From a virus (taxonomy: Duplodnaviria; Heunggongvirae; Uroviricota; Caudoviricetes), in IMG/VR virus record IMGVR_UViG_3300045988_107065: a stretch of 34,387 nt of DNA; one strand, 5' to 3'. Within the stretch, counting starts at the first letter, position 1. Each line of letters begins with the position of its first letter. Both the position numbers and the translations under genes were made by a program. Below the pieces are notes generated by a model. The model saw nothing but the letters and a program-made list of their open reading frames with translations. It ran no database searches and was not told the DNA's origin. Below, one piece after another: positions 1 through 34,387 of this stretch.

Positions 1-33
1 ACACTCTTTCCCTACACGACACTCTTCCGATCT
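1..33. other. Illumina TruSeq-type adapter sequence (ACACTCTTTCCCTACACGAC-ACTCTTCCGATCT, 1 mismatch to the universal adapter); not biological
   Basis: Exact recognisable adapter string at the contig edge; the ORF frame of the adjacent gene terminates inside it. Confidence 0.85.
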
Positions 34-767
34 GCATCTTTGAGTGTAGGGTAATCACCCCATTCGCCAACAGTAATAACAAAAGTATAATATGAGTTAA
101 AAACAGCGGCATTTTTGCCTTTGGATATCAACTCCTTAATCATAAAAATATTATCTTCGTAATCACAAGGAGAAATTATATCCCTCATTTTGCTTTGAAA
201 TGTTCGTTGTCTTGCCCCGCTTCCTGACGGTATAAACCAACCAAAACCACCAACAACCCCGGCGATTGCAGCATCGACATAATTACGCATTGAGCGATTA
301 TTTACAGCGTCCTGCTCAAATGATGGATCTGCAAGGTTAGAAATTTTGTTTTGCTTTGCATCGTAATATTTTGCAAGCAAAGATGGTTTCATCAATGCAC
401 GTCTGAACCACCCAAAACATCGCTGGATCAGCATCGTCAGGTAGTCAAATGCATCTTCATGAACTTCGGGGAAAAATTTTCCCTGATTGCGAAGATCAGT
501 CTCCTGCACCACATCAAGCACACGCTCTATCGTAATTCGCCAGCCAGCAGCAAGCGGCGACGGGAGAACCACTTCACCGCCACTATAAGTGCCCGCTCCA
601 GTTACCTTATAACCGGTATCCAGAACCAATTCTGTTACGTTCCCGTTCAGGTCAGACACCTGAACAACCAGGTCGGTTTTTTTGAAAATACGGAAGGTAT
701 ACGGAAATGATGTCGTAGCTCCGTTACCAGTGTATTCGTTGTGGTCAACTTCGGTTGAGACCGTCAT
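12..767 (-). CDS. Tail fibre/tailspike protein, N-terminal virion-attachment domain only; 3' end truncated by contig edge (true phage sequence 34-767; the stop at 12-14 lies in adapter)
   Basis: N-terminus NEYTGNGATTSFPYTF...DLVV resembles the T7 gp17 tail-fibre N-terminal domain (LDGSNRDFNIPFEY); 251 aa is too short for a complete fibre. Confidence 0.7.
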   Translation of the reverse strand: MTVSTEVDHNEYTGNGATTSFPYTFRIFKKTDLVVQVSDLNGNVTELVLDTGYKVTGAGTYSGGEVVLPSPLAAGWRITIERVLDVVQETDLRNQGKFFPEVHEDAFDYLTMLIQRCFGWFRRALMKPSLLAKYYDAKQNKISNLADPSFEQDAVNNRSMRNYVDAAIAGVVGGFGWFIPSGSGARQRTFQSKMRDIISPCDYEDNIFMIKELISKGKNAAVFNSYYTFVITVGEWGDYPTLKDADRKSVV

Positions 768-923: not shown

Positions 924-943
924 TACTGTATAAATATACAGTT
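924..943. promoter_or_regulatory. LexA (SOS) box
   Basis: TACTGTATAAATATACAGTT, 18/20 match to TACTGTATATATATACAGTA; CTGT-N8-ACAG core at 926-941; about 20 bp upstream of the ATG at 963. Confidence 0.7.
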
Positions 944-962
944 ATTGCATGGAGAAGATAAG

Positions 963-1220
963 ATGCAGCAGTATCACTATCCACTGGAAGACGGATTTAC
1001 CGAAAGGATTCACACGCCGGGAGGCGTCAGGTCACTGGTGGAGGGATCGCACTTGATGAAATTACTCCGGGATCTCGATAAGGATGGATTTAATGTCGAT
1101 GGCCCACTTGCCGAACTGACTGCACTGATTAACTACGTCACCAGCTCACAGATGTCTATGCAGGATCTGCAAACACATCTCGACTATTGTGCCGAACAAT
1201 TACGAAAACAAACCAGATAA
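963..1220 (+). CDS. Small protein (85 aa) homologous to the C-terminal domain of the adjacent Bro-N protein; candidate SOS-induced antirepressor
   Basis: ATG at 963 with GGAG 8 nt upstream (track ORF starts at an upstream TTG, 945); about 40% identity over about 75 aa with the C-terminus of the 1536-2231 product. Confidence 0.6.
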   Translation: MQQYHYPLEDGFTERIHTPGGVRSLVEGSHLMKLLRDLDKDGFNVDGPLAELTALINYVTSSQMSMQDLQTHLDYCAEQLRKQTR

Positions 1221-1251
1221 GGTTTGCAATTACCAAAAGGAGTGCTTATAT

Positions 1252-1266
1252 TTACCTTTGCGGTAA
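1252..1266. promoter_or_regulatory. TTACC-N5-GGTAA palindrome (site 2)
   Basis: atttaccTTTGCggtaaat. Confidence 0.45.
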
Positions 1267-1301
1267 ATTTACATCGCACTCCTCTTGTGCCATAGTAATC
1301 G

Positions 1302-1339
1302 GGCACTGGCAAAATCCAGTGCCGGGATTGGCGTCCCGG
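1302..1339 (+). other. Two tandem perfect hairpins (8 bp stem with CAAAAU loop; 6 bp stem with UUGGCG loop)
   Basis: ggcactgg-caaaat-ccagtgcc and ccggga-ttggcg-tcccgg read directly from sequence. Confidence 0.5.
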
Positions 1340-1358
1340 ATTACTAAAAGGCGCATTC

Positions 1359-1378
1359 ACCGCGCAAGCGGTTTTTTT
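1359..1378 (+). terminator. Rho-independent terminator
   Basis: accgc-gcaa-gcggt followed by TTTTTT. Confidence 0.6.
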
Positions 1379-1478
1379 ATGCGTATAGCACGGCCACATT
1401 CGTATTATGGTGGGCTGTGTGGGGGCACCGAAAGGTGCGCCGGGTCCTTTTAGCCGGTTACGCCAACCCTGCACAGTT

Positions 1479-1509
1479 CACCACCAACCGATTGGCGTCG
1501 GTAGTGGTG
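1479..1509 (+). other. Extended hairpin with UUGGCG loop in the Bro-N gene leader
   Basis: caccac-ca-accga-ttggcg-tcggt-a-gtggtg; same loop sequence as the hairpin at 1322-1339. Confidence 0.45.
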
Positions 1510-1535
1510 ATTAACCAGACTAAAAGGTAATCACT

Positions 1536-2231
1536 ATGACAGCTACAAAAAGCACGTCCATTTTTTCTTTCGAATCCCAAGCCGATATACGAGTAATCGT
1601 CATTAATGGTGAGCCATGGTTTATCGCTTCAGATGTTTGTCGGGCTATAGGCATAGCAAACCATCGAGATGCTGTTCGAAAACTTGATGATGATGAGAAG
1701 GGCGTCGCTTCAACCGACACCCCTGGCGGTGAACAAGAATCGATCATCATCTCCGAGTCAGGCCTCTACACACTGATCCTCCGCTGCCGCGACGCAGTGA
1801 CACCAGGCACTATCCCCTACCGCTTTCGTAAATGGGTTACAGGTGAGGTTCTTCCTCAGATCCGCCGCACCGGAAGCTACATTAAAAACTCGCTCCCGCA
1901 GGAAGAACGCATAAAGATGGTTGCCGACCAGGTAGCCAACGCCACAGCATCAGCAGTGATGCAGGCAATGAAGATAGAGAACAAAACCTACAGCGCCCCA
2001 CTGAAGCCCGGCTACCGCAGCCTGATTCATTCTCCGTCTGGTGTTCTCGGCCTGACGGAAAACTCACTGCTGATGAATCTGCTGAACCAGTTACAGGAAG
2101 ACGGGCACGACGTATCGGGTGCGGCGGCGGAGCTGACCACCATGTTCTGCTACATTGTTGGTGTGAGCAAATGCCTGCGTGATATCCAGACCCACGCGGA
2201 GTACATCAACGACAAGGCAGGGTTCTTCTGA
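1536..2231 (+). CDS. Bro-N domain protein (phage antirepressor-type, KilAC/Ant-like)
   Basis: N-terminal Bro-N signature (VINGEPWFIASDVCRAIGI...); C-terminal domain paralogous to the 963-1220 product. Confidence 0.8.
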   Translation: MTATKSTSIFSFESQADIRVIVINGEPWFIASDVCRAIGIANHRDAVRKLDDDEKGVASTDTPGGEQESIIISESGLYTLILRCRDAVTPGTIPYRFRKWVTGEVLPQIRRTGSYIKNSLPQEERIKMVADQVANATASAVMQAMKIENKTYSAPLKPGYRSLIHSPSGVLGLTENSLLMNLLNQLQEDGHDVSGAAAELTTMFCYIVGVSKCLRDIQTHAEYINDKAGFF

Positions 2232-2303: not shown

Positions 2304-2318
2304 TTACCTTAAAGGTAA
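2304..2318. promoter_or_regulatory. TTACC-N5-GGTAA palindrome (site 3), abutting the SD of the following ORF
   Basis: ttaccTTAAAggtaa followed by AGGAGG. Confidence 0.45.
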
Positions 2319-2330
2319 AGGAGGCGCGAT

Positions 2331-2498
2331 ATGACAGCGTTGAAAAATCGTACTCAGCACAATGAACAAGCCAAGCAATGCTGGGATGTCATTGGAAAAG
2401 TTATGCTTGGCCGCGCAAGCAAAGAGCGCGACAAGGATATGGTTTACCAGACAGGAACATCTTTCAGCGACTTCAAGGCGGCATTTCGCTCCAAATAG
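2331..2498 (+). CDS. Small hypothetical protein (55 aa), below the ORF-track size cutoff
   Basis: ATG with AGGAGG at ideal spacing; MTALKNRTQHNEQAKQCWDVIGKVMLGRASKERDKDMVYQTGTSFSDFKAAFRSK. Confidence 0.5.
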   Translation: MTALKNRTQHNEQAKQCWDVIGKVMLGRASKERDKDMVYQTGTSFSDFKAAFRSK

Positions 2499-2518
2499 AA
2501 GCACATCAGGAGTTTTCC

Positions 2519-2959
2519 TTGAAGTTTAACATTAGAATATCTAATAGTTTTCTACATGGGGAAAGCAACACCCCTTTCGCTGTAGACGGACCTTTCCTTA
2601 CTGATGATGAAATAAAAATCATACAAAGTTTTTTAGAGGATGTTGCCAATGGAAGGGCGCTTGTTGGAAAAAACAAGCCCTCGTGGGTTGATGATAACCA
2701 TGATAAAATTCCCGGCTCAGACAATTATGAGCAAGAGAATTATTGGCATTATCATTGTGGGCCAACATGGTATCCAAACACATTTAAGAATTATACCATT
2801 AACTTAAATTTCAACCCTGGCGGAAGGCATTCTAATGAATGCATTCATTATGCAAAAAATGATAATGAAATTGTCATTGTTGGATTTTCAAGAGAACACA
2901 TACCTTTCCTTTCATCAGATGGAAACAACAATCCGCTTTTTAATGATGAAGAAGAATAG
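2519..2959 (+). CDS. Hypothetical protein (about 146 aa), AT-rich accessory gene
   Basis: Probable TTG start at 2519 with AGGAG 6 nt upstream; the track's upstream extension (2378) overlaps the small ORF in another frame. Confidence 0.55.
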   Translation: MKFNIRISNSFLHGESNTPFAVDGPFLTDDEIKIIQSFLEDVANGRALVGKNKPSWVDDNHDKIPGSDNYEQENYWHYHCGPTWYPNTFKNYTINLNFNPGGRHSNECIHYAKNDNEIVIVGFSREHIPFLSSDGNNNPLFNDEEE

Positions 2960-2979
2960 CCCGCGCTGCGGGCTTTTTT
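2959..2979 (+). terminator. Rho-independent terminator
   Basis: gcccg-cgctg-cgggc followed by TTTTTT, directly after the stop codon. Confidence 0.65.
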
Positions 2980-3051
2980 GTGGGCGAAACAAAAGTCAGT
3001 GCTACACTCATTGACGCCACATTGAGGTGGCTTATAGATGGAAATTTCACA

Positions 3052-3213
3052 ATGAAAAAAGCATTTGCTGCACTGTTCGTTTTGTTGTCTCTGGTAGCTT
3101 CAACTCAGGCCTTTGCCGGTCGTTGTCAGCACGACAGCGACACTGCTGCTGACGGCTCCCGCTGCGGTGGGCGTTCTGCGGATTCCCGTCCGGGCGGCGG
3201 TGGCATTCGTTAA
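3052..3213 (+). CDS. Small secreted protein (53 aa) with N-terminal signal peptide and Gly/Arg-rich tail
   Basis: MKKAFAALFVLLSLVASTQAFA signal-peptide-like N-terminus; weak RBS. Confidence 0.45.
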   Translation: MKKAFAALFVLLSLVASTQAFAGRCQHDSDTAADGSRCGGRSADSRPGGGGIR

Positions 3214-3218
3214 AAACA

Positions 3219-3237
3219 AGGCCGCGAAAGCGGCCTG
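3219..3237 (-). terminator. Hairpin/terminator downstream of the minus-strand gene 3250-3708
   Basis: ggccgc-gaaa-gcggcc; on the minus strand followed by a T-rich run (TTGTTTTT). Confidence 0.45.
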
Positions 3238-3249
3238 TGACATGTCACG

Positions 3250-3708
3250 CTACTTGCGAAATCTTTCTTTACCCTTCCAGCCAGTAGATGTTAGTTCAGG
3301 ATGAATGGTTCCCAATATAAAGCCAACCATAGCGGAGCGAGGATCTTCTATTTTATCCGTTAATTCTTCGGCATAACTCACAGGCAACCAAGCAACAAGA
3401 TCACCAATCCTCAGCTTTGGTCCTTTGCTGTAAGATGAATCGGCAATAACAAAAAATCCACCATCAGCTGAGCACACCTTCAGCATTGCCCTTTGTCTTC
3501 CAGAATCCAGCAAAACTGGCTGTTCCCCACTGGGACCAGGTATGATGATGGCTGGCATTGGTTTATTGGCTGAAAGGCTTGTGTCAAGATACTTACACGC
3601 ATACTCAAAAGCTGAAAAGTTATCCTTAAAGATAAGAGGTTGAATTTTATTGCTAACCTCCTTACCACCGATTAATCTGTTGATCATCTTCTTGAACATA
3701 AAGGTCAC
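3250..3708 (-). CDS. Hypothetical protein (152 aa)
   Basis: Long ORF in AT-rich island; no recognisable motif. Confidence 0.5.
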   Translation of the reverse strand: MTFMFKKMINRLIGGKEVSNKIQPLIFKDNFSAFEYACKYLDTSLSANKPMPAIIIPGPSGEQPVLLDSGRQRAMLKVCSADGGFFVIADSSYSKGPKLRIGDLVAWLPVSYAEELTDKIEDPRSAMVGFILGTIHPELTSTGWKGKERFRK

Positions 3709-3711
3709 CTA

Positions 3712-4152
3712 ATGATTAAGCCGATGCACGCTATTACAGCTACCGTTTTGTTTATCCTACCAATTTTTTCGTTTGCAAACGACATATGTTTTAAGAATTT
3801 AATAAATGAGGATATGTGTGCACATGCAAACAAAATTGCATCAGAAGCAGGAAAGTCTCTTCCCATAAAATTGAATGATAATATGTCTATTGTTTCAATA
3901 AATGCAATACTAAACAAACTTTTAGTTGTAGCGCATCTTAATTACAACAACAGCTATTTATCAAAAGTTTATAATGGTGATGTAACCTTAGAAAATAAAT
4001 TAAAGAGTGTAATGCGAAATTATTCAAAATCGAGCATTTGCTCCAACAGGCAAATGAAAGCATTTATTCACCTTGGCGGAGAGATTGAGTATAGGTATGT
4101 ATTTAGTGATGGCAATATATTTGATACATACGCCATCACTAATTGTGAATAG
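3712..4152 (+). CDS. Hypothetical secreted/periplasmic protein (146 aa) with signal peptide
   Basis: Hydrophobic N-terminus (AITATVLFILPIFSFA); AT-rich; stop codon abuts the stop of the convergent gene at 4153. Confidence 0.55.
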   Translation: MIKPMHAITATVLFILPIFSFANDICFKNLINEDMCAHANKIASEAGKSLPIKLNDNMSIVSINAILNKLLVVAHLNYNNSYLSKVYNGDVTLENKLKSVMRNYSKSSICSNRQMKAFIHLGGEIEYRYVFSDGNIFDTYAITNCE

Positions 4153-7100
4153 CTATTTCATCTGCTCTTCAACTTTATTTAGTAACGGTGATATCGCCCA
4201 CAGGTTCTGAAAAGGTAGCATTTTACGGACCGCGTGGGTTTGCTGGCTGTCAAATTCTCCGTTAAGTACACCATTCGCAACCGTCGCGGCATCACCGCCA
4301 AGATCAAAGGTAGGACCAAGTAAAGCACCAATAGCATTACGACTCTGAAACCTTGATACCGGAGGCGCACCAAACATCGCGCCAAGACCAAACCTACCGC
4401 CGCTTATGTTCTCAACGGTATTCAGCGGCTCAGAGAGCCAGCCAAGCATTCCGCCCCGGTCGATCCCCTCTTTCACAAGGTTATTCCAGCTGTAGTCGAT
4501 ATCGCGACCGCTTAACTTCTGTTTCATCATATAGACCATTGAGCCAAGCGCAATCGTGCCAAGCGCACCAAGATAGAATGCAGCATCGCCCTGCTGGATA
4601 CCAGATACTAGCACCCTGTTATGCTGTGCGAAGATAAACGTTTTGAACTGCGTGATCATCTTCCAGCCTTCTTTACTAAAAAACAGCGGTGTATCACCTA
4701 CGCCAGGCGTTACAATCACTGAGTCTACATCTTTCAGCACTGCAGACTGGAAAATCTCTCTAGCGAAACGGTCATCCCACAGATGACTATGCCCGGTTAA
4801 CAGCCCGTCCATATCCTCTCCGTGCTTCCCGAATTGCTCCCCGATTCGACGCAGAACATCTTCATTGATGCCGACCTGTGCCATCTTCCGCATTTCACTT
4901 TTGGAGAGCGTGCCACCAGCAGAAACTTGGCGAGCCGCGTCAAGTATCCTCGACTGCACTATCATCCCGGACCATGATTTAAGTGCGCTGTTCCACTGAT
5001 TCATCAGCGTCCAGTTACCGAATTTCTGCGTCATCCAGTTCAGACCTCGCTCAGCGGCGCTTCTCCGGCTATAGGGGTCAGTAAGATCCGCTATAGCCTT
5101 TGTACGCGTAGACAGGACATAATCAAGCCCAACGGCCATTTCTCGCAAATCCCTGGTTGCAATTTTCACTGAGTCCATATTTTTAAGCATGCTTACCATT
5201 GGTCCGAGAGATTTTCTCAGGCCATGCTGCATCATCGGTCGCATCAGATCAGTTGCAGCGGAGACAGTCATTCCACCAAGCAAACGGAGGAAGTTAATAT
5301 TCCTAGCAACTCGCCCGGCACGAACAAAGAAACTGCGTGGATCTTGAGGTGCGCCGTAAGTACCAAGCAGTCGATCACGCATAGCCGTAATATCCCTAAT
5401 ATCAGCCTCCCGTTGCTTCTCAAGAACTGCACGTCGTTTAGGTGTTTTAGCCTCTTTTATTAGCCGGGTATATTCCTCACTAACCTGACGGATTTGCTCC
5501 CCCATATCTTTACGGCCAAACTGCGCAGTCAGCTCAATTTCTGGTGCCACCTGCCGGAGATAACTTTCCATGATGTAGTTAACATCTGATTCAAGAAAAT
5601 CTTCTATACGCTCATCAGGAATAAGCAGCGTTCTGCTTTTAGTGAAACCAGCCCGACCAACGAGTCTCTCTGGGATAATATCGGCTGGTACAAGCCCGGA
5701 AGGTGCGCCTATTATTTTATTCACGATCTCGTCAGCAGCGTCCTCTGCTTCCTCTCGGGATAGAGGCTCCATCTGCTTCAGTGCTCGTTCGCGGCTTGCA
5801 TTCAGCCTTGTGGTTGAATTTGCCCGTTTTTGCAGTCGGCGAAGCTCAGAACGATATTTCCGTGGATTATCCAGCAACTCCATATGGCGCTGATAGACAG
5901 GAAGCTCACTCTTTGCCTGCGCTATATCATCAAGGCGTGTTTTAAGGTCAGAGCTTTCTTTCATCATTCTTGCCTGAAGTTTTTCTGATGAAGTCTCGGC
6001 CAACTCTTTTTCTATTCTTGTAAGACGCGCCTGTGTGTCAGTCTCCTGAGATATAAGCTTATTTCGTTTATCCAGTTCTTCCATGAGTAGAATTTTTTTA
6101 CCAGACCATTTCTCCGCTTCAGCGATTTCACTAGCGAGAGCATCAGCGCGCGGTGCTGATTCCTCTGCAGTTTTTAGCAATGAATTTATCTTTTCAATTC
6201 GCTTACCTGCTTTGTCAGCACCTTTGGCACTAATCCCTTGTATCCAGTTGGCAATTCGCCCTCTGAATTCAGTGCGGTCGGAAAGTATCTTATCGAACTT
6301 ATAAATGCGGGGAAGATAACTTTTCGCCGTCACGACATCGATATCCTCAGGAAGGATCCCCAGTTCCTGCATACGGGCTTTTGTGGTCTCAAAAATGGGG
6401 CGGATTCTGGCGGCTGCTTGTGAAACCTCAGGAATATCACTCTGATCACCACGGCGCATAGCCATGCCAACAGCTTCATTGAAATCAATAAAGCTCATCC
6501 TCTTCACGCCGCGGGCGCTGACAGATTTGCTGTACTGCTGGTAAGCATCACGAGTAGCTTCCATCTGCTTATAAAGCATGGCATCGTATTGCTTAATCTT
6601 AGTCTCGACTGCCGTAAACGTAGCCAACCCCTCATCATTTTTGGCGAAGAAATAGTTATTTTCGGCAAGCTGCTGGTTAATCTGACGGGAAACAAGAGAT
6701 GGTGATTGCGCCAAGCGGCCAGCAGGAGTGACACTCAACGTTTTGTTAGCAAGTCCAAGTCCAGCGAGCTGTTCCTGATCGAGTGTGGTATTGAAAACCT
6801 GAGCTGCACCAATGCTTTGAGGAGAATCCATACCTCGCAAATGATTACCTACTGAGTTAACCACTGCCTCGCGCGCGCTAGGTCCAGCAAGTAGCTGTGC
6901 ACCAGCACCAAGGATCCCACCAACGAGAGCATCAATAACAACGTTCGATACGCTCTCCATCGGTGAGCGAGCTTCCTGAGTGGCCTGTAATGCGGCTTCT
7001 GATACTCCCCCACCAGCAGCATTCGCCAAGGCAAAACGCCCTGCCGTCTCAGCAATACTTCCTCCACGCGCTACCGCCCCTACAGGGATGAACATTGCAG

Positions 7101-15562: not shown

Positions 15563-15582
15563 GTCTGTTACGACCCACAGGT
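15563..15582 (-). other. Stem-loop downstream of the major capsid gene
   Basis: gtgggtc-tgttac-gacccac. Confidence 0.35.
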
Positions 15583-28051: not shown

Positions 28052-28282
28052 TCATGAGTAGAAGAAGTATGCCAGTTCTGCTTTTGAGCGCAGCCATTGT
28101 CTTGATTTACAGGCTTTAAAAAGCCCATCCATCAATACCTTACCTGGCATTTTGCGCTTACCTGTTAAGTGAGTCTGGATATAGTGACTCGTCGTTCCGG
28201 CTTCCTGTGCGAAGGCTTCACGCTCATCCGGAGTAAGTGCAAGCCAGTGCTTTTTGAAATCGAAATGTCCGTTATCGCTCAT
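28052..28282 (-). CDS. Cro-like HTH DNA-binding protein (76 aa)
   Basis: HTH segment EAGTTSHYIQTHLTGKRKMP resembles Cro/YdaS-type HTH; first gene of the minus-strand operon, divergent from the repressor. Confidence 0.6.
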   Translation of the reverse strand: MSDNGHFDFKKHWLALTPDEREAFAQEAGTTSHYIQTHLTGKRKMPGKVLMDGLFKACKSRQWLRSKAELAYFFYS

Positions 28283-28318: not shown

Positions 28319-28381
28319 TCACCTATAAGGTAACAAAAATCAAGGATAGTTACCCATGAGGTGCATTTACCTGTTGGGTAA
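28319..28381. promoter_or_regulatory. Divergent promoter/operator region with three adjacent palindromic sites (two imperfect, one perfect TTACC-N5-GGTAA)
   Basis: tcaccTATAAggtaa (28319-28333), ttaccCATGAggtgc (28350-28364), ttaccTGTTGggtaa (28367-28381) between the divergent cro-like and repressor genes. Confidence 0.55.
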
Positions 28382-28436: not shown

Positions 28437-29021
28437 ATGAAAAGTATCCAGGACGTCCGCAGGCAAAATCTCAACGACTTGATCGACCGTGAATTCAATG
28501 GTGTTCAGACGCGGATGGCTGAAAAACTTGGAACTCAGGCAAATCTGGTAAACCGCTGGGCTCTTGGCAAGAAGGTTATCGGCGACCAGGTTGCGCGAAA
28601 AATTGAAGCTGCCGCCAATAAACCCCGTAACTGGCTTGATATCGATCGCTCGCTTTCTCAGGAAGGTTTTCAGCCTGTCGGACCAAGCGACATTGGTCAA
28701 CTGGCGGCTCACAACCTGGAACGCTGGATGAGCGAAAGCCGCGACCTTTCAACGCAGGGAAAACTTCACCGCGCATCCGGCGTCGCCCAGGTGACAATCA
28801 GCCGCCTGTTAAACAATGAGGTCAGCGTTTCCATTTCCACCCTGGAGAATGTTGCATCCGCATTCGGGCGTCACGGCTATGAATTACTGATTCACCCGCA
28901 CGACCCTGCGACTATCAACTATGACCGCTCGCGCTACGCTTTGTTACCCGAAACCGAGAAAGCAAAGATCGAAAGTTACATTGAATTTGTCATCAACCAG
29001 AACGAAAAAAACAAACAATAA
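28437..29021 (+). CDS. Repressor-like protein with two tandem XRE-type HTH domains and no peptidase domain
   Basis: Two HTH-like segments (QTRMAEKLGTQANLVNRW; ASGVAQVTISRLLNNE); no Ser/Lys S24 autocleavage motifs seen. Confidence 0.65.
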   Translation: MKSIQDVRRQNLNDLIDREFNGVQTRMAEKLGTQANLVNRWALGKKVIGDQVARKIEAAANKPRNWLDIDRSLSQEGFQPVGPSDIGQLAAHNLERWMSESRDLSTQGKLHRASGVAQVTISRLLNNEVSVSISTLENVASAFGRHGYELLIHPHDPATINYDRSRYALLPETEKAKIESYIEFVINQNEKNKQ

Positions 29022-32929: not shown

Positions 32930-34180
32930 TTATTCCCCCGCCATCCATTTCTCAAACTTCGACGGGGAGAACGGAATCAGATCCGTATGCTCCCCGTCAA
33001 TCCAGGAATCAATCATATCGGCCCACTGCTGCAACATGTAGGCGCGCTGTCTGGCGTATTCCGCTTTGTTATATACGGCGCGCACACCTTTCTGCTCATG
33101 TGCCAGAGCCTTTTCAATCCAGTCTGAAGGATAACCAGCCTCATGCAATAACGTACTGGCTGTACGGCGCATATCGTGTACGGTGAAATCCTGAATATGC
33201 TCACCATCTTCATTTATTATTTTCACCGTTCTGTCGATCAGAGAGTTCAGCGCGGCATTAGATAATGGCTTCCGGAAATTGTAACGACCAGGAACCAGAT
33301 ATTCACTTCCACCAGCGCACATCTGCAACCCGACCAATATATCCTGAGCCTGTTTAGGCAGGTAAATAACATGCGCCCGGCTTCCCTTCATGCGGTCTGA
33401 AGGAATTGTCCATGTCCATTTTTTAAAATCTATTTCATCCCACGTTGCATTGGTGAATTCGCCCTTACGAACCATAGTGATAAGCACCAGTTTTAAAGCC
33501 ATTTTCATAGTGCCCATAGCACCAATGGCATCCAACGTGCGGAAGAACAGGCCAATTTCTTCTGGTGTCAGTGTTCGCTCTCGTGGTTTAAATATGGCGA
33601 TAGACGAAGGCTTAATGTCAGCCGCAGGATTAAACAAACCATGACCACGGTCATTGGCGTGACGGTATACGCTGCTGATGATCTCCCTGGCCTGCACTGC
33701 TGTTGCCCGGCCACCGCGTTCGACAATCCGGTCACACAAATCACGAACCATCGATGTGGTAATTTCAGCCATCATTTTGTTGCCAAGAACCGGAAGTATG
33801 TCACGGTCGATCACTGCCTGCTTCATTGCGCGGGTACTTTCAGCCAGGATGACGTGTTTCATATAACTGTCGGTATGTACCGCAAACGTTTCGGCACCAC
33901 GAATCTTTTTGATACCGTCACGTTTAGCCGCAGCCGGTGACTGGCCTGCTTTAAGCAGCTTCTTTGCAGCAATCAGTTCTTCCCGCGCTTCTGCCAGGCT
34001 GATACCGTCACGCCCATACTGCCCGATTACCAGTGTTTCGCGGCGACCGTTGATACGGTAGTCATAACGAAATGAGACCGTGCCTGACGTAAGCACAGCT
34101 ACATACAGCCCGTCACGATCGGAGACCTTGTACAGTTTGTCCTGCGGCTTGAGGTTTTTTAATTTTGTATCGGTAAGCAC
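32930..34180 (-). CDS. int: Tyrosine integrase, P4-type (N-terminal arm-binding domain plus catalytic domain)
   Basis: N-terminal MLTDTKLKNLKP...GLYVAV...FRYDYR arm-binding motif; C-terminal HDMRRT...VRAVYNKAEY with catalytic Tyr. Confidence 0.9.
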   Translation of the reverse strand: MLTDTKLKNLKPQDKLYKVSDRDGLYVAVLTSGTVSFRYDYRINGRRETLVIGQYGRDGISLAEAREELIAAKKLLKAGQSPAAAKRDGIKKIRGAETFAVHTDSYMKHVILAESTRAMKQAVIDRDILPVLGNKMMAEITTSMVRDLCDRIVERGGRATAVQAREIISSVYRHANDRGHGLFNPAADIKPSSIAIFKPRERTLTPEEIGLFFRTLDAIGAMGTMKMALKLVLITMVRKGEFTNATWDEIDFKKWTWTIPSDRMKGSRAHVIYLPKQAQDILVGLQMCAGGSEYLVPGRYNFRKPLSNAALNSLIDRTVKIINEDGEHIQDFTVHDMRRTASTLLHEAGYPSDWIEKALAHEQKGVRAVYNKAEYARQRAYMLQQWADMIDSWIDGEHTDLIPFSPSKFEKWMAGE

Positions 34181-34326: not shown

Positions 34327-34387
34327 GAGTTGGCATCTGAGTAGGAATGATTTGCTATGAGTTAGCTGTTAATCATTCCCACTCAAT

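Follow-up and report, generated by a model that had tools for sequence, protein, structure and literature searches.

The segment described here is part of the anti-immunity region of a phiV10/ZX5-like (Uetakevirus) prophage of E. coli, and in all likelihood it encodes two antirepressors that are gated in different ways and have one repressor-binding domain in common. The DNA analysed, henceforth the window, comprises 34,387 nucleotides. Induction by a LexA-controlled antirepressor has already been published for the orthologous system of phage SPC32H, and this part is a known system. The undescribed part is the tandem RNA-gated arrangement, i.e., a fused second repressor-binding domain behind a C4/IsrK gate, with probable operators of the repressor at both promoters. 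It is a modest variant. For the phage of the window, the binding of LexA, the contact between Ant and Rep and the expression of the RNAs are deduced from orthology or sequence: the LexA-controlled tier was demonstrated in the SPC32H ortholog and is transferred here, while the RNA-gated tier is seen in its anatomy and deduced in its function.

The small antirepressor and its LexA box

924-943, + strand: LexA (SOS) box TACTGTATAAATATACAGTT, 18 of 20 positions as in the consensus TACTGTATATATATACAGTA
951-954: Shine-Dalgarno sequence GGAG of ant
963-1220, + strand: ant, small antirepressor of 85 amino acids, ortholog of SPC32H Ant (5D50_E, phrog_450)

The 85-residue product is 88% identical (tblastn) to that of the SPC32H/SPC32N gene annotated "ant: anti-repressor protein". 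Its residues 2-84 match the Ant chain of the crystal structure (PDB 5D50_E) with an E value of 4e-47, and the small Ant of phage ZX5 is 100% identical to it. An exhaustive profile search of 1.84 billion proteins yielded a family of 62 clusters at 50% identity; it consisted of the SPC32H-Ant family only, without any homology of the Tum/DinI or Gfo type. Pfam, searched at E values up to 0.1, equally gave no DinI or Tum-type match, and NCBIfam had no match for the small Ant or for the Bro-N protein encoded downstream. A DUF724 match was ignored, since its 17.6 bits stayed below the cut-off of 38.4. In phiV10, in ZX5 and in the E. coli genomes of RefSeq the gene still goes by "hypothetical", and PHROGs lists phrog_450 as of "unknown function". 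The SPC32H protein forms tetramers, each of which engages two dimers of Rep and breaks the Rep tetramer (PMC9638917).

The LexA box in front of ant is the sole match with up to three mismatches in a scan of the window; none was expected from 100 shuffles. Both arms, CTGT and ACAG, are perfect, and 20 nt lead from the end of the box to the ATG of ant at 963. Box and spacing are kept in phiV10, SPC32H, Tyrion and the related locus L007; four more distant loci have a weaker ATGT..ACAG version. Two further CTGT-N8-ACAG strings, at 15565 and 20107, were dismissed as probable chance matches, having GC-rich spacers and lying inside long ORFs. The first-pass annotation had placed a near-consensus SOS box directly upstream of the 85-residue ORF; the box has turned out to be unique in the window and conserved in position, and all coordinates given there were correct.

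SPC32N is a lytic variant of SPC32H. The intergenic regions of the two differ by a single base: within the CAG arm of the LexA box, SPC32N has A where SPC32H has C, and the variant base is the equivalent of C939 in the window. This mutation reportedly makes Ant synthesis constitutive. The LexA box of SPC32H is also said to overlap the ant promoter. In the window, a simple consensus sigma-70 scan called no promoter overlapping 924-943, and none of the -10/-35 assignments tried by eye around the box was convincing.

The missing promoter call could be taken to mean that the palindrome is a chance match, or that it regulates the divergent tailspike gene instead of ant, the more so since it lies in a 195-bp intergenic region common to both genes. 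We regard this as practically negligible: chance predicts no match at all, the distance of 20 nt to the ant start is fixed across diverged phages while the tailspike start is 157 nt away, and the SPC32N base change falls within the box.

The repressor and its candidate operators

28437-29021, + strand: rep, two-domain HTH repressor without peptidase domain, predicted target of Ant (5D50_A, Pfam)
28052-28282, - strand: cro-like gene, divergent from rep, flanking the tandem palindromes
28319-28381: three tandem putative operator palindromes (28319, 28350, 28367) in the intergenic region shared by rep and the divergent cro-like gene
872-886: candidate Rep operator TTACCTTTCGGGTAA, palindrome 91 nt 5' of the ant ATG
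1252-1266: second putative operator palindrome TTACCTTTGCGGTAA, abutting the -35 element of the candidate isrK promoter

The product of rep aligns over its full length with the Rep chain of SPC32H (5D50_A; E 4e-42, 42% identity). Pfam finds HTH_3 at residues 106-147 and, weakly, a YdaS-type HTH at 21-61. That the repressor candidate is devoid of S24 motifs, as had been stated earlier, is confirmed by this search, which returned HTH families only and no Peptidase_S24. If Rep were nevertheless inactivated by RecA-stimulated cleavage, Ant would be reduced to an accessory. No point in favor of this possibility was found; the missing Peptidase_S24 match and the full-length homology to SPC32H Rep, which reportedly is not cleaved, render it highly improbable. 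The first reading had instead proposed induction by a LexA-controlled antirepressor, and this proposal is supported by the match of Ant and Rep to the two partners of 5D50 and by the position of the SPC32N change in the box.

The window contains 10 copies of the 15-bp palindrome TTACC-N5-GGTAA, while 0.06 copies would be expected. In most related loci a copy is located -88 to -97 relative to the start of ant. At the 5' end of isrK it is found at -51 to -37 in seven of eight epsilon15-like loci; it is absent there from the Stx-phage copy of the RNA cassette. Three copies separate rep from the divergent gene, in the window and in SPC32H alike. In the window, the copy at 28367 is exact and that at 28319 has one mismatch (both from the scan), and the copy at 28350, read by eye, has two. 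As judged from these locations, the palindrome is probably the operator of Rep. Location being the only basis of the assignment, the Cro-like protein or another factor would be an alternative owner.

An RNA cassette between the two genes

The stretch 1221-1535, which lies between ant and the Bro-N gene, comprises an IsrK-like RNA and a C4 antisense RNA, both overlooked in the first-pass annotation.

1268-1296, + strand: candidate cassette promoter (TTTACA, 17 nt, CATAGT, upstream TG; promoter scan)
1303-1378, + strand: IsrK-like RNA (Rfam RF01394, 77.9 bits, gathering score 50)
1328-1334, + strand: C4 target site a1, TTGGCGT, within the IsrK-like RNA
1344-1351, + strand: C4 target site b1, CTAAAAGG, within the IsrK-like RNA
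1359-1372, + strand: stem, followed by a T-run, of the intrinsic terminator of the IsrK-like RNA (terminator scan)
1403-1488, + strand: C4-type antisense RNA (Rfam RF01695, 77.7 bits, gathering score 45, full-length model)
1446-1453, + strand: C4 loop b', CCTTTTAG (fold and complementarity)
1460-1466, + strand: C4 segment a', ACGCCAA (fold and complementarity)
1492-1527, + strand: leader of the Bro-N gene with a2 (1492-1498) and b2 (1520-1527, CTAAAAGG)

The -10 block of the candidate promoter, TTGTGCCATAGT, is invariant in four phages, and the predicted start, around 1303, falls on the first position of the isrK model; we infer that the promoter is active. A further Rfam model, RF03163 (c4-a1b1), matches at 1290-1342 with 45.1 bits, just below its gathering score of 46.7.

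The complementarity of a' to a1 and a2 and of b' to b1 and b2 is perfect, with matches of 7 and 8 nt, respectively. The b2 site overlies the Shine-Dalgarno sequence of the Bro-N gene, 8 nt 5' of its ATG. Across nine loci, the three partners covary (a comes in three types, b in five or more), and in all nine the end of b2 is 6-10 nt away from the start codon. The covariation was scored by a helix search in each locus; a column-wise count of pairs was dropped, since indels shift the b sites out of register.

The interval between C4 and the Bro-N gene contains no gene and, thus, no icd-like leader. An orf45-like ORF over C4 was tested and is not conserved across the loci: from the conserved start ATGGTGGGCTG the frame runs for 35 amino acids in the window and for 3, 8, 15 or 64 amino acids in other loci, or it is in frame with the downstream gene.

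The presence of the IsrK/C4 cassette and of the operator palindromes implies that the two antirepressor genes are, by their anatomy, separately gated and not simply co-expressed. SPC32H and epsilon15 have neither the RNA cassette nor the fused paralog; they contain the small ant alone. Because these phages lack the cassette and the fusion gene of phiV10 is truncated inside its Ant-like domain, the RNA-gated tier is apparently dispensable.

The fused paralog and the shared domain

1536-2231, + strand: fused antirepressor gene, Bro-N domain at about 1584-1856, SPC32H-Ant-like C-terminal domain at about 1980-2216

The N-terminal domain of the 231-residue product is Bro-N (Pfam PF02498, 76.7 bits, residues 17-107). 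Residues 150-223 align with the small Ant, 31 of 74 positions being identical (42%, E 8e-16), which bears out the original observation that the 85-residue protein resembles the C-terminal 75 residues or so of its neighbor. Residues 150-226 also match 5D50_E itself at 1e-13, which establishes, by sequence comparison, that the fused C-terminal domain is homologous to SPC32H Ant. Between free and fused copies, polar residues are invariant, among them H17, D41, E51 and the motif Q70-T71-H72.

The domain occurs fused to four types of N-terminal domain, Bro-N, AntA, Rha and ORF6N, and in the loci examined the fusions always reside within epsilon15-like backbones. A word-indexed protein search had only retrieved close relatives of the small Ant; the fusions surfaced by exhaustive profile search. 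Of the epsilon15-like loci with a second gene, seven of seven have the Ant-like C-terminal domain. In the Stx phage, whose Ant follows the same cassette, a test of this Ant for the domain was negative. A comparison of the window with L007 is instructive: only the N-terminal domain is swapped, with breakpoints at window positions 1512 and 1958, while the C-terminal domains are nearly identical (one difference in the last 82 residues). The C-terminal domain was kept under purifying selection while the N-terminal one was exchanged. By all appearances, the SPC32H-Ant domain can be carried from one protein to another as a module.

[quoted passage not shown] Overexpression of this ORF lowered the number of ZX5 lysogens from 1e9 to 1e6, i.e., 1000-fold, and the ZX5 prophage is inducible by mitomycin C (PMC9782041). 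The overexpression effect leaves the mechanism undefined.

It had been suggested that the shared domain is the repressor-binding module, present once free and once fused. Indirect support comes from the four exchangeable N-terminal partners and the restriction to epsilon15-like backbones, and also from the pro-lytic effect of the overexpressed ZX5 protein (PMC9782041). The domain could, of course, be an oligomerisation scaffold only, by which the fusion forms tetramers and acts via Bro-N on DNA or another partner instead of Rep. The tetrameric state of SPC32H Ant (PMC9638917) shows that the fold carries an assembly function, and Bro-N, AntA, Rha and ORF6N are domains of the DNA-binding type. 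Moreover, the fused copy shares just 42% of its residues with the small Ant, a value that counts against a common Rep-binding function. A mere scaffold, however, would hardly be expected to travel with epsilon15-like backbones in every locus examined, to be missing from the Ant that an Stx phage has after this cassette, to be retained under purifying selection while its N-terminal partner is swapped, or to keep the same polar residues in free and fused copies. Nor does it account for the 1000-fold loss of lysogeny upon ORF4 overexpression (PMC9782041). We therefore consider the scaffold unlikely and prefer the repressor-binding module.

How the two antirepressors may work

In an undamaged lysogen, host LexA bound to 924-943 would silence the small ant. 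Upon DNA damage, RecA would become active, LexA would cleave itself and Ant would be made. The Ant tetramer is predicted to bind Rep, which has no self-cleaving domain of its own, and to split the DNA-binding Rep tetramer into dimers; the operators would be freed and the lytic genes turned on.

The second gene would be governed differently. From the separate promoter at 1268-1296, the IsrK-like RNA, then the C4 RNA and finally the Bro-N::Ant-like gene would be transcribed. Pairing of a' and b' of C4 with a2 and b2 of the leader would cover the ribosome-binding site and leave the fusion untranslated, as in immI of P1 and P7. Accumulating IsrK-like RNA could then titrate C4 with its decoys a1 and b1 and open translation of the fusion, as does IsrK for AnrP in Gifsy-1. 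Since the palindromes lie at the ant and the cassette promoters, loss of Rep from them should boost both genes. The fused copy might, thus, provide a second route to Rep inactivation that is either SOS-independent or self-reinforcing.

Tentatively, one may go a step further and see in the two genes a single coupled circuit, so far undescribed, of a trigger and a latch, although we rate this as possible rather than probable. There is no terminator between ant and the RNA cassette, and SOS transcripts should therefore run into IsrK and mostly stop at its terminator. The ant mRNA would then carry the a1/b1 decoys at its 3' end; by sequestering C4 it would allow the fusion to be translated, and expression would rise further as Rep leaves the operator next to the cassette promoter. 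In such a circuit the small Ant would be the LexA-dependent, reversible trigger, and the fused Ant, being Rep-repressed and RNA-gated, the latch that commits the prophage to lysis even after LexA has recovered. In evolution, recombination may plug in the SPC32H-Ant fold as a portable repressor-specificity module, with both the head in front of it (Bro-N, AntA, Rha or ORF6N) and the C4 specificity open to exchange.

The RNA-gated fusion may, alternatively, serve mainly as a weapon in superinfection, directed against resident related prophages and not part of the phage's own induction circuit. Its role would then resemble that of Ant in P22 or P1 and the heteroimmunity of P1 and P7. In fact, the C4 specificities of the window and L007 differ (GGCGT versus GGTCT in a, AAAAGG versus AAGTGG in b), although positions 700-1511 are about 92% identical; this is the pattern expected for escape from a resident C4. 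The palindrome, too, is common to the group, so that the Ant of an incoming phage could act on a resident Rep. However, if the cassette palindrome is a Rep operator, resident Rep would silence the cassette of the incomer, and the homologous cassette of Gifsy-1 induces its own resident prophage (PMC4825925). In our view, superinfection is conceivable as the main purpose, yet not the probable one. A role in superinfection and one in the phage's own induction are not mutually exclusive.

Relation to known systems

Ant of SPC32H is reportedly under LexA control. Like the window, SPC32H belongs to Uetakevirus, and it has ant in the equivalent position, divergent from the tailspike gene, with the LexA box equally far from the ATG and TTACC-N5-GGTAA likewise upstream. 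Its Ant and Rep are 88% and, over the full length, 42% identical to those of the window. Compared with SPC32H and epsilon15, the window adds the IsrK/C4 cassette and the fused Bro-N::Ant-like paralog downstream. The references for SPC32H are Kim & Ryu 2013 (J Virol 87:11775), Kim et al. 2016 (PNAS 113:E2480) and the PDB entries 5D50 and 5D4Z; secondary descriptions are available in PMC9638917 and bioRxiv 10.1101/2025.11.27.690993.

In ZX5 (Li et al. 2022, PMC9782041), small Ant and Bro-N protein are 100% and the DNA about 98% identical to the window. Its description names the Bro-N protein, ORF4, as the "anti-repressor" and ORF21 as the repressor; the small ant is annotated as hypothetical, and the LexA box, the RNAs and the shared domain are not mentioned (PMC9782041).

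More distant analogues of the small Ant are Tum of phage 186 and GfoA/GftA of the Gifsy phages, small antirepressors which are directly under LexA and act on a non-cleavable repressor (PMC3121763). The first-pass annotation had invoked them as models. They are valid functional analogues, but the closest relative is SPC32H Ant, and a sequence relationship to them was not detected.

For the RNA-gated tier, precedents exist in immI of P1 and P7, where, according to the work as cited, a C4 antisense RNA controls icd-ant (Citron & Schuster 1990, cited in PMC7313666). The order is the same: a1/b1, C4 with a'/b', a2/b2 over the ribosome-binding site, then an antirepressor gene, with a few covarying loop bases setting the specificity. 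A further hallmark of immI is that RNase P frees C4 from a longer transcript. In contrast to immI with its icd leader, which is translationally coupled to ant, the window has b2 directly on the Shine-Dalgarno sequence of the antirepressor gene itself. Further, the C-terminal domain of this antirepressor is SPC32H-Ant-like and not P1-Ant-like, and the cassette adjoins a LexA-controlled ant.

The isrK-orf45-anrP locus of Gifsy-1 (Hershko-Shalev et al. 2016, PMC4825925) resembles the window in its layout: an IsrK RNA whose terminator is leaky, a processed C4-like RNA (STnc1160) and an antirepressor gene follow each other. Acting in trans, short IsrK turns on translation of AnrP, and the prophage is induced. 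The window differs by the lack of a conserved orf45-type ORF, whose translation in Gifsy-1 is coupled to that of the antirepressor, by the C-terminal domain encoded downstream and by the Rep-operator-like palindrome at the promoter.

According to the citing papers, the phage-plasmid N15 has AntC under LexA control and, behind an RNA gate, the immA operon with icd, antA and antB (Mardanov & Ravin 2007; Ravin et al. 1999; cited in PMC4488713, PMC3121763). Thus, N15 and the window each have two routes of antirepression, one via LexA and one via an IsrK/C4-type RNA cassette. Our searches placed IsrK and C4 matches in front of N15 genes 32-30, and in its Bro-N part gp30 shares 44% of its residues with the protein of the window. 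The two N15 loci, however, are far apart and their proteins, in the papers cited, are not reported to share a domain, whereas in the window the genes are adjacent and paralogous in their predicted repressor-binding module.

Significance

The core finding, an SOS-controlled antirepressor directed against a non-cleavable repressor, has been known for this genus since 2013-2016 and does not establish a new principle. Its value is rather practical: annotation lags behind, and in the ZX5 paper the Bro-N gene is the only one credited with antirepression. The region also offers a compact system in which to ask how RNA-based immunity is tied to a damage signal, and in what way phages shuffle antirepressor domains. 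The segment is common: at least 80% of it is present in 241 of 5,426 complete E. coli genomes.

The small antirepressor and its LexA box

The 85-aa product of the gene at 963-1220 (ant) is 88% identical to 'ant: anti-repressor protein' of the Salmonella phages SPC32H and SPC32N and 84% identical to gp19 of epsilon15 (tblastn). In a search of solved structures, two proteins of the window match chains of 5D50, the SPC32H Rep-Ant complex: the small protein the 'Anti-repressor protein' chain (E 4e-47) and the repressor, over its full length, the 'Repressor' chain (E 4e-42, 42% identity). The first-pass annotation had seen no S24 autopeptidase motifs in this repressor candidate (28437-29021), and the domain search agrees: it returned helix-turn-helix families only and no S24 peptidase match. 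Kim and Ryu are said to have found in 2013 that Rep of SPC32H stays uncleaved during SOS.

The SOS box proposed in front of ant, TACTGTATAAATATACAGTT at 924-943, indeed agrees with the LexA consensus in 18 of 20 positions. With up to three mismatches allowed, no other match occurs in the window, and 100 shuffles yielded none. The box ends 20 nt upstream of the ATG at 963, which is preceded by a GGAG Shine-Dalgarno. Its position is conserved in phiV10, SPC32H, Tyrion and one metagenomic relative; a weaker ATGT..ACAG box is found at the same spacing in four more distant loci, and two very distant homologues have no recognisable box. Between SPC32H and SPC32N, one C-to-A change is the only difference in the tailspike-ant intergenic region; it falls in the box, in the CAG arm, at the equivalent of C939 of the window. 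According to the same 2013 work, ant is reportedly under LexA repression, and a single base change in the LexA site is said to make SPC32N lytic.

DNA damage would cause LexA cleavage and synthesis of the small Ant, the tetramer of which would disassemble Rep, as shown for the ortholog. Induction via a LexA-controlled antirepressor had been correctly deduced; it is, however, already published for the SPC32H ortholog. The feature is real and was correctly read, but it is already known. Of the likeness to 186 Tum and the Gifsy proteins only the functional analogy stands; a sequence relationship was not found.

In the compared locus L010 (552-636), a distant small-Ant homologue of 86 aa lies about 290 nt from an opposite-strand match to sRNA-Xcc1; no LexA box was seen there.

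The Bro-N fusion and a portable Ant domain

The second gene (1536-2231) encodes a 231-aa protein with a clear Bro-N domain. That its C-terminus is paralogous to the 85-aa product had been noticed, with the right coordinates: residues 150-223 share 31 of 74 positions with the small protein (E 8e-16), and a match to the SPC32H Ant chain extends over residues 150-226 (E 1e-13). The protein is 100% identical to ORF4 of phage ZX5, the overexpression of which lowers lysogens from 1e9 to 1e6, and mitomycin C raises the titre of the ZX5 prophage from 1e7 to 1e9 PFU/mL (PMC9782041). In that study the RNAs described below went unnoticed, as did the small ant and its LexA box.

When 1.84 billion representative proteins were searched exhaustively with a profile of the Ant domain, just 62 clusters were found to have it, some of them free-standing proteins of 83-95 aa, others with the domain as a C-terminal module after Bro-N, AntA, Rha or ORF6N. 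The same slot in prophage L007 codes for a protein with an AntA head and with one difference from the window protein in its last 82 residues; on the DNA, similarity is lost exactly at the borders of the N-domain, at 1512 and 1958 of the window. From such comparisons the Ant domain emerges as a portable module.

An Ant-like C-domain, behind whatever head, is found in 7/7 epsilon15-like loci having a second gene, and the Stx-phage Ant that follows an 80% identical RNA cassette is devoid of it. This distribution supports the original proposal that the shared domain is the repressor-binding part, and a backbone-specific one. Less probably, the domain gives tetramerisation only.

In phiV10 (L001, 3334-4013), phiV10p23 has 194 aa and stops short within the Ant-like domain; an ORF of 30 codons comes after it. 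Comparison with the 231-aa protein found in ZX5 and the window shows a frameshift, which marks a pseudogene or else an error of sequencing.

The IsrK/C4 cassette

The stretch 1221-1535, a 'spacer' whose content the first-pass annotation had missed, contains three features (Rfam), listed here with two segments of C4.

RNA features between ant and the Bro-N gene
1290-1342, a1/b1 target motif of C4 (45.1 bits, slightly below the gathering score of 46.7)
1303-1378, IsrK RNA (77.9 bits, gathering score 50)
1403-1488, C4 antisense RNA (77.7 bits, gathering score 45)
1446-1453, C4 loop b', CCTTTTAG
1460-1466, C4 segment a', ACGCCAA

Loop b' is perfectly complementary to b1 in the IsrK part (1344-1351) and to b2 in the Bro-N leader (1520-1527); so is a' to a1 (1328-1334) and a2 (1492-1498), respectively. 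The Bro-N Shine-Dalgarno lies under b2, 8 nt upstream of the ATG at 1536. Nine loci were compared: the window, phiV10, Tyrion, a Klebsiella phage, three metagenomic or genomic prophages (one on two contigs) and an Stx phage. The end of b2 is 6-10 nt from the start codon in all nine. They display three types of the a site and at least five of the b site, and all three copies co-vary within each locus. This three-way covariation is strong comparative evidence for a functional RNA control.

A candidate promoter at 1268-1296 (TTTACA, 17 nt, CATAGT, extended -10) has its predicted start at the IsrK 5' end. The IsrK terminator is the sole plus-strand terminator from the LexA box to the Bro-N gene.

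P1/P7 immI and the Gifsy-1 isrK locus share this layout. In Gifsy-1, short IsrK causes the antirepressor AnrP to be translated and the prophage to be induced (PMC4825925). The icd-antA-antB genes of N15 follow the same cassette. P1 and N15, however, have an icd gene that the window cassette lacks and, unlike in Gifsy-1, the C4-overlapping ORF of the window is not conserved across loci. No description of such a tandem arrangement, RNA-gated and with a shared domain, was found in the literature searched; made of known parts, the combination is only moderately novel.

Stx-converting phages (phi296, 1995-2177, and about 100 Stx phage records) contain the same cassette at about 80% identity, with the a-type of the window. 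The gene downstream encodes an unrelated Ant protein; the RNA gate is therefore mobile as a cassette, and prophages sharing a host might experience cross-talk through C4.

ORFs over the C4 RNA gene (window 1407-1514; 6249-6380 in the compared locus L009) are annotated 'Ash family protein', e.g., in ZX5, and the translated C4 gene of L009 matches Pfam PF10554 Phage_ASH (2.7e-9). Because the overlapping ORF varies in frame and length across loci, part of the Ash family may be a translated RNA gene.

Candidate Rep operators and a proposed second tier

The window contains 10 copies of the palindrome TTACC-N5-GGTAA, where 0.06 would be expected.

Palindrome copies in the window (15 bp each)
872-886, 91 nt upstream of the ant ATG
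1252-1266, adjoining the -35 of the cassette promoter
2304-2318
Further starts: 19578, 22723, 25974, 26036, 28367, 29079, 29141

The copies are distributed across intergenic regions of the whole prophage. The interval that separates rep from the divergent cro-like gene contains three palindromes, of which one is exact and two are degenerate. In SPC32H, 11 exact copies occupy equivalent places, and one of the palindromes is upstream of ant; its interval between rep and the divergent neighbour again contains three, two exact and one with a mismatch. The copy at the cassette promoter is found in 7/8 epsilon15-like loci and is absent from the Stx cassette. Dispersed in this way, the palindromes look like an operator network of one repressor and recall the C1 operators of P1. 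By location, TTACC-N5-GGTAA is probably the Rep operator, and both antirepressor promoters would therefore be Rep-responsive as well.

Anatomy and covariation indicate that C4 blocks the ribosome-binding site in the leader of the fused paralog and that IsrK carries decoy sites. The fused protein would inactivate Rep too, and Rep would repress the cassette promoter. The fused copy could then be a reinforcing or an SOS-independent route. This second tier is non-essential, since the cassette is absent from SPC32H and epsilon15 and the fusion gene is truncated in phiV10.

Prophage identity, ends and flanking blocks

Positions 700-2242 are 95-98% identical to the E. coli phages vB_EcoP_ZX5, TL-2011b and phiV10, epsilon15-like podophages of the genus Uetakevirus. 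The locus is common: at least 80% of it is present in 241 of 5,426 complete E. coli genomes.

Features at the window ends
12-767, minus strand, N-terminus of a tailspike or tail-fibre gene
32930-34180, integrase gene, about 190 bp from the att core
34371-34387, minus strand, att core ATTGAGTGGGAATGATT (17 bp), the exact last bases of the window

The core ATTGAGTGGGAATGATT is the attP reported for phiV10, epsilon15 and ZX5 (PMC9782041). The 5' end is an assembly artefact: positions 1-33 are Illumina adapter-like (ACACTCTTTCCCTACACGACACTCTTCCGATCT), and the contig terminates inside the tailspike gene.

Between the tailspike start and the candidate ant operator, a block ATTCTATTACC..AACC..ATATG.AT (816-845) is unchanged in five diverged phages; it could serve as promoter of the tailspike gene or as a site for an activator. 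Another block, 2304-4152, separates the antirepressor gene from the tail genes and has no counterpart in phiV10. It comprises a palindrome of the candidate operator, two genes of 55 aa (phrog_8607) and 146 aa (phrog_5954), and two further ORFs (3250-3708, minus; 3712-4152, plus), none of these genes having a Pfam or NCBIfam match. Possibly, it is a moron or accessory cargo under Rep control.
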